Source: a virus | Lineage: Duplodnaviria > Heunggongvirae > Uroviricota > Caudoviricetes | Virus record (IMG/VR): IMGVR_UViG_2711768071_000018 | Direction: 5' to 3' (one strand) | DNA: 39,078 nt | Shown here: positions 5,106-5,375 of the stretch, piece by piece | Numbering within the stretch: position 1 is the first letter of the stretch | Layout: every line of letters begins with the position of its first letter | Made by a program: the position numbers and the translations under genes | The notes under the pieces: generated by a model | What the model was told of the DNA's origin: nothing | The model's database searches: none | The model's input: only the letters and a program-made list of their open reading frames with translations

Positions 5106-5375
5106 TTACTTCATCCCGCCAATATTTTCCCACGTCCCGTCAGCACGCAGGATTTGCAGCGGTCTTACCACACACTGTATCAGCTTTTTATCTGTATCCA
5201 GTATCACCACCTGTGTGATTACCCTGTCCTGCTCCGGAATAATGCCATTCTCATCTGACTCCAGGATGTCTGCCGGCCCCAGTCGCAGTTGTGCTGTAAG
5301 CGACTGCACGTGTTCACGGCCATCATGCTTTCCGCAACCACACAGACGCTGCATAAGTTTTTTTAGTATATTCAT
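5106..5375 (-). CDS. Small protein (89 aa) paralogous to the tail fibre C-terminal domain
   Basis: ATG one base after the tail fibre stop, with a GGAG Shine-Dalgarno; LRLGPADILESDENGIIPEQDRVITQVVILD...GDGTWENIGG aligns with the tail fibre C-terminus [33 protein letters not shown]...GDGPWQDVKG. Confidence 0.5.
   Translation of the reverse strand: MNILKKLMQRLCGCGKHDGREHVQSLTAQLRLGPADILESDENGIIPEQDRVITQVVILDTDKKLIQCVVRPLQILRADGTWENIGGMK

Follow-up and report, generated by a model that had tools for sequence, protein, structure and literature searches.

The viral DNA analyzed here (IMG/VR record IMGVR_UViG_2711768071_000018; 39,078 nucleotides, hereafter the window) carries on its minus strand the end of the late operon of a lambda-like prophage, in which J is followed by a Lom/Ail-like gene, a collagen-like side tail fibre gene, and the small gene that is the subject of this report (Table 1). 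The order J, lom-like gene, fibre gene, small gene parallels the J, lom, stf, tfa of lambda, and a preliminary description of this DNA was therefore right to place the gene where lambda carries tfa. The gene is already known in the literature and in databases: its 100% DNA match is named "phage tail fiber C-terminal domain-containing protein" in RefSeq (WP_001023459.1), and equivalents are ORF68/ECs1229 of phage Sp5 and gp59 of phage phi24B. The product consists of MNILKKLMQRLCGCGKHDGREHVQSLTA followed by a PfC domain (PF06820, Phage_fiber_C). It has an ATG and Shine-Dalgarno (SD) sequence of its own, and the PfC domain is free-standing in it, not the C terminus of a long fibre protein.

Table 1. 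Features at the end of the late operon and in the adjoining effector locus (positions in the window)
Feature	Positions	Strand	Basis or remark
espJ	1-654	+	
NleG-like gene	1553-2179	-	
tfa C-terminal remnant	~2284-2364	-	By transfer from 6245-6325 of locus L003 (RefSeq annotation, identical E2855 region)
cif	3047-3895	-	
nleH	4119-5009	-	
Mobile cassette (distal collagen, PfC, small gene, terminator)	5056-5926	-	95.9% to Sp5/VT2-Sakai
Intrinsic-terminator-like hairpin	5061-5091	-	11-bp GC-rich stem, UCC loop, U-rich tail
Small gene, 89 aa	5106-5375	-	ATG 5373-5375, TAA 5106-5108; ORF list and sequence
PfC of small protein (PF06820), residues 28-89	5109-5294	-	Pfam 1-64/64, 118.4 bits
Codon 81 of small gene	5133-5135	-	
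N-terminal extension of small protein, 27 aa	5295-5375	-	Without Pfam match; not in fibre
A7 run, codons 5-7 of small gene	5355-5361	-	
Distal tail fibre ORF (coiled-coil remainder, collagen Gly-X-Y, PfC), 345 codons	5377-6414	-	Truncated; stop TGA 5377-5379
SD AGGAGA for small gene	5381-5386	-	Inside last fibre codons; read from sequence
Fibre PfC, residues 271-334 of the 345-aa ORF, then 11-aa acidic tail	5413-5604	-	Pfam 1-64/64
Fibre segment, ~540 bp, two identical copies	5904-6441 and 7245-7782		Direct repeats
IS100kyp 3' fragment (most of istB), ~815 bp	About 6442-7255	+	
Fibre N-terminal part (PfN, coiled coil, collagen start), 264 codons	7222-8037	-	PF08400 1-133/134, 233 bits
Lom/Ail-like gene	8096-8695	-	
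J	8763-12239	-	

The fibre has the architecture of the EPclA type, with PfN (PF08400), a coiled coil, collagen (PF01391), and PfC, and an intact 437-aa homologue is annotated in E. coli E2855. In the window the gene is broken by a 3' fragment of IS100kyp flanked by direct copies of one fibre segment; intact fibres are homologous to the window over 8299-7245. Because of the IS fragment and the duplication, the ORF adjoining the small gene holds the distal 345 codons only, and its Pfam content is the C-terminal end of PF08400, PF01391, and PF06820. The tail fibre named in the preliminary description does end in PfC, but the ORF there is the distal part of a broken gene. A duplication of ~540 bp is not a normal target-site duplication, so the arrangement looks like a rearrangement scar; across both junctions it was found in no complete E. 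coli genome of the collection (best coverage 82%, IS part only).

Downstream of the late operon, positions 1-5009 of the window are an exchangeable T3SS effector locus. Its NleG-like ORF matches a DUF1076 pseudogene of E. coli E2855, and both cif and the NleG-like gene, which are open in the window, are annotated as frameshifted in that strain. In the matching genome, the prophage adjoins ybhB and the bio operon. A C-terminal remnant of tfa is annotated ~2.8 kb downstream of the small gene, past nleH and cif, and suggests an older stf-tfa arrangement that has since been overwritten.

The likeness between the small protein and the fibre tip, which had been proposed from inspection of the letters, is far beyond chance. 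In BLASTP the small protein (residues 29-88) aligned with the fibre ORF (residues 272-333), with 22 of 62 positions identical (35%), 60% positives, and E=2e-11 in this single comparison, and the match to PF06820 spans the whole 64-position model in both proteins (118.4 bits for the small protein and 120.6 bits for the fibre; gathering cutoff, 25 bits). The positions listed as shared in the preliminary description (RLGP, NG, P..D, IT, LD, LQ, and DG.W...G) are conserved columns of our 15-sequence alignment, where G44, P47, Q74, G80, and W82, together with I37, I53, T54, L59, L73, D79, and G87, are invariant or nearly so. The small protein also matches the PHROGs family phrog_576 ("tail fiber protein") over its full length (residues 1-89 versus 1-89 of 89; E=2.1e-58, 195.5 bits). 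A Pfam scan at E<=1 returned PF06820 alone and revealed no likeness to Tfa (Caudo_TAP); NCBIfam gave no match. In the explanation favoured below, the small gene arose by duplication of the fibre's own PfC tip domain.

The N-terminal extension has a basic, amphipathic start, a CGCG motif, and a His-rich stretch, and its pattern M-x-I-x-K-K...L-x-G-C-x-K is also present in a 58%-identical homologue (P0224). Lipobox signals call for a hydrophobic h-region before the cysteine; none precedes the L-C-G-C of the small protein, and a lipoprotein reading was rejected. A Zn-binding reading of C12/C14/H17/H22 was likewise discarded, as these residues are not conserved in the homologues P0022, P0070, and P0224. 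An AF2 monomer model built on the 15-sequence alignment had a mean pLDDT of 58 and a pTM of 0.37; the N-terminal 32 residues scored below 50 and include a low-confidence helix at 3-11, and only the PfC part, with four beta strands in residues 56-84, reached a pLDDT of ~70-75. A Foldseek comparison of this model with the PDB gave no match at E<=0.001, and sequence searches of solved structures yielded none matching PfC; the fibre matched collagens only. The authors of the phi24B study obtained no confident AlphaFold model for the PfC domain either (bioRxiv 10.64898/2026.04.10.717836).

Conservation was assessed on the window and 78 related loci, of which 77 are IMG/VR viral contigs and one is a contig from an E. 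albertii genome. In all 79 the small ORF is intact at 89 aa, ATG and SD included, and among 52 distinct alleles its pN/pS (Nei-Gojobori) is 0.12, compared with 0.30 for the fibre PfC; within the small gene, the value is 0.097 for the PfC part and 0.32 for the 27-codon extension. A search that began with the fibre PfC gave 72 loci with enough downstream sequence; of these, 70 have an intact small ORF, and both exceptions are frameshifted in the A7 run. The small gene is a real protein-coding gene under strong purifying selection. In Citrobacter rodentium the pair persists beside a decayed fibre, with a small ORF that lacks its first codons owing to a frameshift in the A-run.

Two sites within the gene deserve mention. 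The A7 run (MNILKKL) is a recurrent frameshift site, where one A has been lost in the IMG/VR loci L160 and L164 and in the C. rodentium copies (L170); the usable start then shifts to an internal ATG, or the ORF is dead. Codon 81 is the most variable residue of the gene (T/R/V/K, all changes nonsynonymous); it lies within an otherwise conserved R-A-D-G-x-W-E-N, at a place where the fibre always has Pro. This codon may mark an exposed specificity site.

One nucleotide separates the fibre stop from the small-gene ATG, and AGGAGA lies 5 nt upstream of that ATG. The same stop-1nt-ATG junction occurs, with AGGAGA, in 73 of the 79 loci and in 70 of the 72 located from the fibre side. A terminator-like hairpin begins 14 nt past the TAA (-23.2 kcal/mol by RNA folding, z=-4.0, with 0 of 200 shuffled sequences as stable) and marks where the late transcription unit ends, and no sigma-70-like promoter was found on the minus strand between 4900 and 6500. 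With the SD inside fibre codons, the 1-nt gap, the terminator, and no promoter, the small gene appears to be the last late cistron, set for translational coupling; judged from these signals, its protein is probably made from the late transcript by coupling to the fibre.

A 481-nt query comprising the gene and the fibre end has matches in 698 of the 5426 complete E. coli genomes in the collection, at a median of 12 places per genome, and tblastn placed the small gene in 296 phage records, mostly Stx-converting, including the short-tailed VT2-Sakai/Sp5, whose copy is 91% identical. One of these relatives, in a lambda h434 imm21 hybrid record, is labelled "tail fiber assembly chaperone," a label given without evidence. 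Outside this narrow enterobacterial group, no relatives were found with phmmer among 1.84 billion representative proteins; nearly every one of the 57 matches was this protein again, as a variant or a fragment. Word-indexed protein searches returned proteins of E. coli, E. albertii, and C. rodentium only, and a scan of GTDB species representatives returned just 2 loci. One of these, a 725-bp contig assigned to "Xanthomonas pisi" DSM 18956 (L085, NZ_JPLE01000138.1), encodes a small protein of 91% identity and is most likely E. coli or phage DNA contaminating that assembly.

Between the siphovirus-type prophage of the window and the podovirus Sp5, the sole long block in common is the ~870 bp from 5926 to 5056 (blastn; L002, AP000363.1). 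Outside it the two fibre genes are unrelated, and the homology stops at 5056, just past the terminator. The unit of horizontal exchange is therefore the distal collagen, PfC, small gene, and terminator together. Fibre-tip and tfa cassettes of P2, lambda, and Mu have long been known to follow the same exchange pattern.

A divergent fibre/small-gene pair was found at 110-974 of locus L171 (GCA_008387015.1). Its fibre ORF has 212 codons, which may not be the full fibre since the ORF begins near the contig end, and no Gly-X-Y repeats; its small gene has its own AGGAGG and overlaps the fibre ORF by 14 nt. The fibre PfC of this pair is 36% identical to that of the window, and its small protein is 61% identical to the window's. 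The pair does not occur in the complete E. coli genomes, and all copies of its small protein in the phage collection are just ~55% identical to it. Close to the pair are genes for NleG- and SopA-like effectors. Overall, small proteins are 61-83% identical among themselves, whereas fibre PfC domains are 27-36% identical to any small protein and, in the three compared, 27-69% identical to each other. It follows that the duplication is old, that the paralogues have not been homogenised, and that the small one is the slower evolving.

Earlier experimental work bears on the gene at several points. Mondal et al. (2016) described ORF68/ECs1229 of the Stx2 phage Sp5 as a "phage fiber C-terminus domain" that stands alone, deleted it individually and in frame (primers are given), and counted it as nonessential; on K-12 MG1655 it is neither one of the nine genes found essential nor one of those whose loss lowered or raised plaque formation or lysogenisation, while the fibre gene ORF67 was essential (PMC5155283). 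Ghosh et al. (2012) found that the fibre PfC alone (7.2 kDa) trimerises and inferred that it renucleates the collagen helix on refolding; in E. coli, neither recombinant EPclA fibre nor Col-PfC fragments need the small gene in order to trimerise (PMC3368898). Beyond these two papers and the phi24B study, our literature search returned no functional study of ECs1229, Z1484, or PF06820, and a preprint on engineering lambda to target STEC neither used nor mentioned the small gene.

The phi24B study provides protein-level data. In the supplementary proteome of purified virions, the peptides ADGTWENIGGMK and VITQVVILDADKK, unique to the small protein, are listed with 3 PSMs each, and both map to the database entry "gp59_start" and to frameshift-fusion entries; the fibre gp61 has 2267 PSMs there, its C-terminal peptide GLDEVGSDTGR has 47, and Lom and Q, which the authors treated as contaminants, have 23 and 19 (bioRxiv 10.64898/2026.04.10.717836). 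The main text does not mention the small protein as a virion protein; according to its argument, BamA is probably bound by a protein other than the PfC-bearing lateral fibre (bioRxiv 10.64898/2026.04.10.717836). Two unique peptides indicate that the small protein is translated in the lytic cycle; in purified virions it is at most a trace component.

Taken together, the position of the gene, its coupling to the fibre, its co-transfer within the cassette, the near-obligate pairing, the strong constraint, and the low virion abundance lead us to favour, with a probability of roughly 0.4, a late, translationally coupled, largely nonstructural accessory protein that is cognate to the PfC fibre tip. 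Produced from the late transcript through coupling to fibre translation, the protein would most likely form a small beta-rich trimer, since PfC by itself trimerises autonomously, and a short N-terminal helix would replace the collagen stalk. It would then act off the virion in a nonessential capacity, binding the fibre and helping or quality-controlling assembly of its tip, and the gene would be retained as the cognate partner of PfC-tipped fibres. It could in this way fill the tfa slot functionally although it is no homologue of Tfa, and the chaperone-like role suggested in the preliminary description is plausible, as position, coupling, and co-transfer with the tip would fit it. The accessory reading is weakened by the dispensability of the gene in Sp5 and by the ability of the fibre to trimerise alone, both of which argue against a strict need for the small protein in fibre assembly. 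Also against it are the low-confidence monomer model (pLDDT 58) with no fold match and the lack of any Tfa relation in the Pfam scan, and the trace peptides would fit a virion component present in substoichiometric amounts just as well.

A more specific proposal, which we regard as possible and no stronger than tentative, is that the protein is a new kind of fibre chaperone or template derived from a duplicated trimerisation knob, associating transiently with nascent PfC tips in mixed assemblies. Such a factor would be unrelated to Tfa, gp38, and gp57A, and would be specific to the PfC-tipped fibres of EHEC/EPEC prophages and Stx phages.

A clearly less likely alternative makes the small protein a minor structural component or adhesin, a small PfC trimer that remains attached at the distal fibre end, like T2 gp38 or Mu/P2 Tfa, and would add or alter receptor specificity on non-K-12 hosts. 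The two peptides listed for sucrose-gradient-purified phi24B virions would fit this, as would the co-transfer with the fibre tip and the hypervariable codon 81 beside the conserved DG-W, and dispensability was tested on K-12 MG1655 only. On the other hand, the ~6 PSMs tabulated for the small protein, next to 2267 for the fibre, fall in the range of the contaminants Lom and Q; the gene changes at a slower rate than the fibre PfC, which runs counter to the usual behaviour of receptor-binding adhesins; and the main text of the cryo-EM paper does not include the small protein as a virion protein.

We consider improbable a role independent of fibre assembly, in which the protein is a soluble PfC decoy that, released at lysis, masks receptors on debris or neighbouring cells, or a dominant-negative limiter of mixed trimers between the numerous PfC fibres of prophages sharing an EHEC host. 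Late expression, the lack of a signal peptide, and near absence from virions agree with this idea, as do the median of 12 locus copies per carrier genome and the presumed position of PfC at the distal, receptor end of the fibre. Yet 35% identity to the fibre PfC makes a shared ligand specificity doubtful, and the Sp5 deletion neither gained nor lost plaques or lysogens.

Mondal et al. proposed that ORF68 is "an intragenomic reservoir sequence" (PMC5155283), and the preliminary description similarly offered a module for exchanging fibre C termini by recombination. In favour of a spare fibre end kept for such swapping, the gene is paralogous to the fibre tip and lies directly downstream in the same orientation. 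Natural recombinants also occur. In one locus (P0066/L086) the collagen region is fused in frame to a small-type PfC, the homology blocks overlapping by 14 nt of imperfect microhomology, and a reciprocal-type chimera (P0171) joins a small-protein N terminus to a fibre PfC. The fusion lies at a contig edge and in 2 samples only, and both recombinants are singletons beside clusters of hundreds to >1000 canonical sequences. Protein searches, phmmer included, found no full-length fibre with a small-type PfC; matches with a real PfC were <=131 aa, and two long proteins in the phmmer output matched only query residues 4-47 and 7-32. Only a single rare, microhomology-mediated fusion was thus seen.

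The DNA itself speaks against exchange. When the two PfC-coding segments are aligned by codons, 99 of 180 nucleotides agree (55%), and no exact match exceeds 10 nt, which is too short for RecA-type exchange. Both copies point the same way, so that exchange between them would delete sequence and could not be reversed; a scan of 5000-8200 gave no inverted repeats of >=30 nt, and the annotation of the homologous locus in E2855 includes no invertase. All 79 loci retain the start codon, the SD, and the full ORF at a pN/pS of 0.12, and the small and fibre lineages (61-83% within the former, <=36% between them) are distinct even in the distant L171 pair. A spare part needs neither start signals nor such conservation, and this DNA is no substrate for homologous exchange, which makes a reservoir unlikely; as the main function it is largely refuted, and the recombination module is disfavoured.

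By far the least probable alternative is a programmed +1 frameshift or stop bypass at GAA-UGA-C that would yield a minor fibre isoform with a tandem second PfC. The small ORF does lie in the +1 frame, UGA-C directly follows the SD-like AGGAGA, and the search database of the phi24B authors contains fusion entries, one annotated "Spike or just gp59?" Against it, the P-site codon is not slippery and is abutted by the SD, and the L171 ORFs overlap by 14 nt instead. A tRNA-Glu paired with GAA is unable to re-pair on AAU. The part of the phi24B proteome file covered here lists no junction peptide (TGEDM.., QENDM.., or ..NILK), and the fusion entry exceeds gp61 only in gel sample EA1829 (25 versus 24 PSMs), a late-numbered sample from the range of the peak of gp54 (220 aa); this weakly favours a free small protein; Mondal et al. 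reported no frameshift signal at ORF68 (PMC5155283).

What this analysis adds to the earlier descriptions is evidence against the reservoir idea and the definition of a cassette consisting of fibre tip and small gene. PfC-tipped collagen-like fibres are carried by Stx-converting phages and by effector-carrying lambdoid prophages of EHEC/EPEC. If the small protein modulates fibre assembly or specificity, it would bear on the spread of Shiga toxin and effector phages and on fibre engineering.

Among known systems, the closest are Sp5 and phi24B, whose small genes (ORF68, VT2-Sakai orf59, and gp59) belong to the same 89-aa family, the VT2-Sakai copy being 91% identical. As in the window, the gene begins 1 nt after a PfC-tipped collagen-like fibre, within a cassette of 95.9% DNA identity; there, however, the fibre (645-aa ORF67/gp61) is a lateral one on a short-tailed phage, whereas the window has a lambda-type side tail fibre that is disrupted. 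The PfC of EPclA shares PF06820 and the conserved core positions with the small protein, but the latter is 35% identical to it, has no collagen stalk and no 11-aa acidic tail, and bears a 27-aa N-terminal extension; trimerisation is on record for the fibre's PfC only (PMC3368898). As to a programmed +1 frameshift of the prfB type, the window has UGA-C with AGGAGA adjacent, the P-site GAA cannot re-pair in +1, and no junction peptide is listed in the part of the phi24B proteome file covered here. In the Mu G segment with Gin and the P1 C segment with Cin, a second copy related to the fibre end likewise adjoins the fibre gene; in the window, by contrast, the copy is direct, has its own start and SD, is 55% identical at the nucleotide level, and is accompanied by no inverted repeats in 5000-8200. 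Like lambda Tfa, P2 G, Mu U (Caudo_TAP), and T4 gp38, the small gene lies downstream of the fibre, is late, and is co-exchanged with the distal end. It differs in that it was dispensable for infectivity where tested, in Sp5, and a separate tfa remnant is annotated further downstream; its product has no sequence similarity to Tfa and, in contrast to Tfa and gp38, is paralogous to the fibre tip itself.
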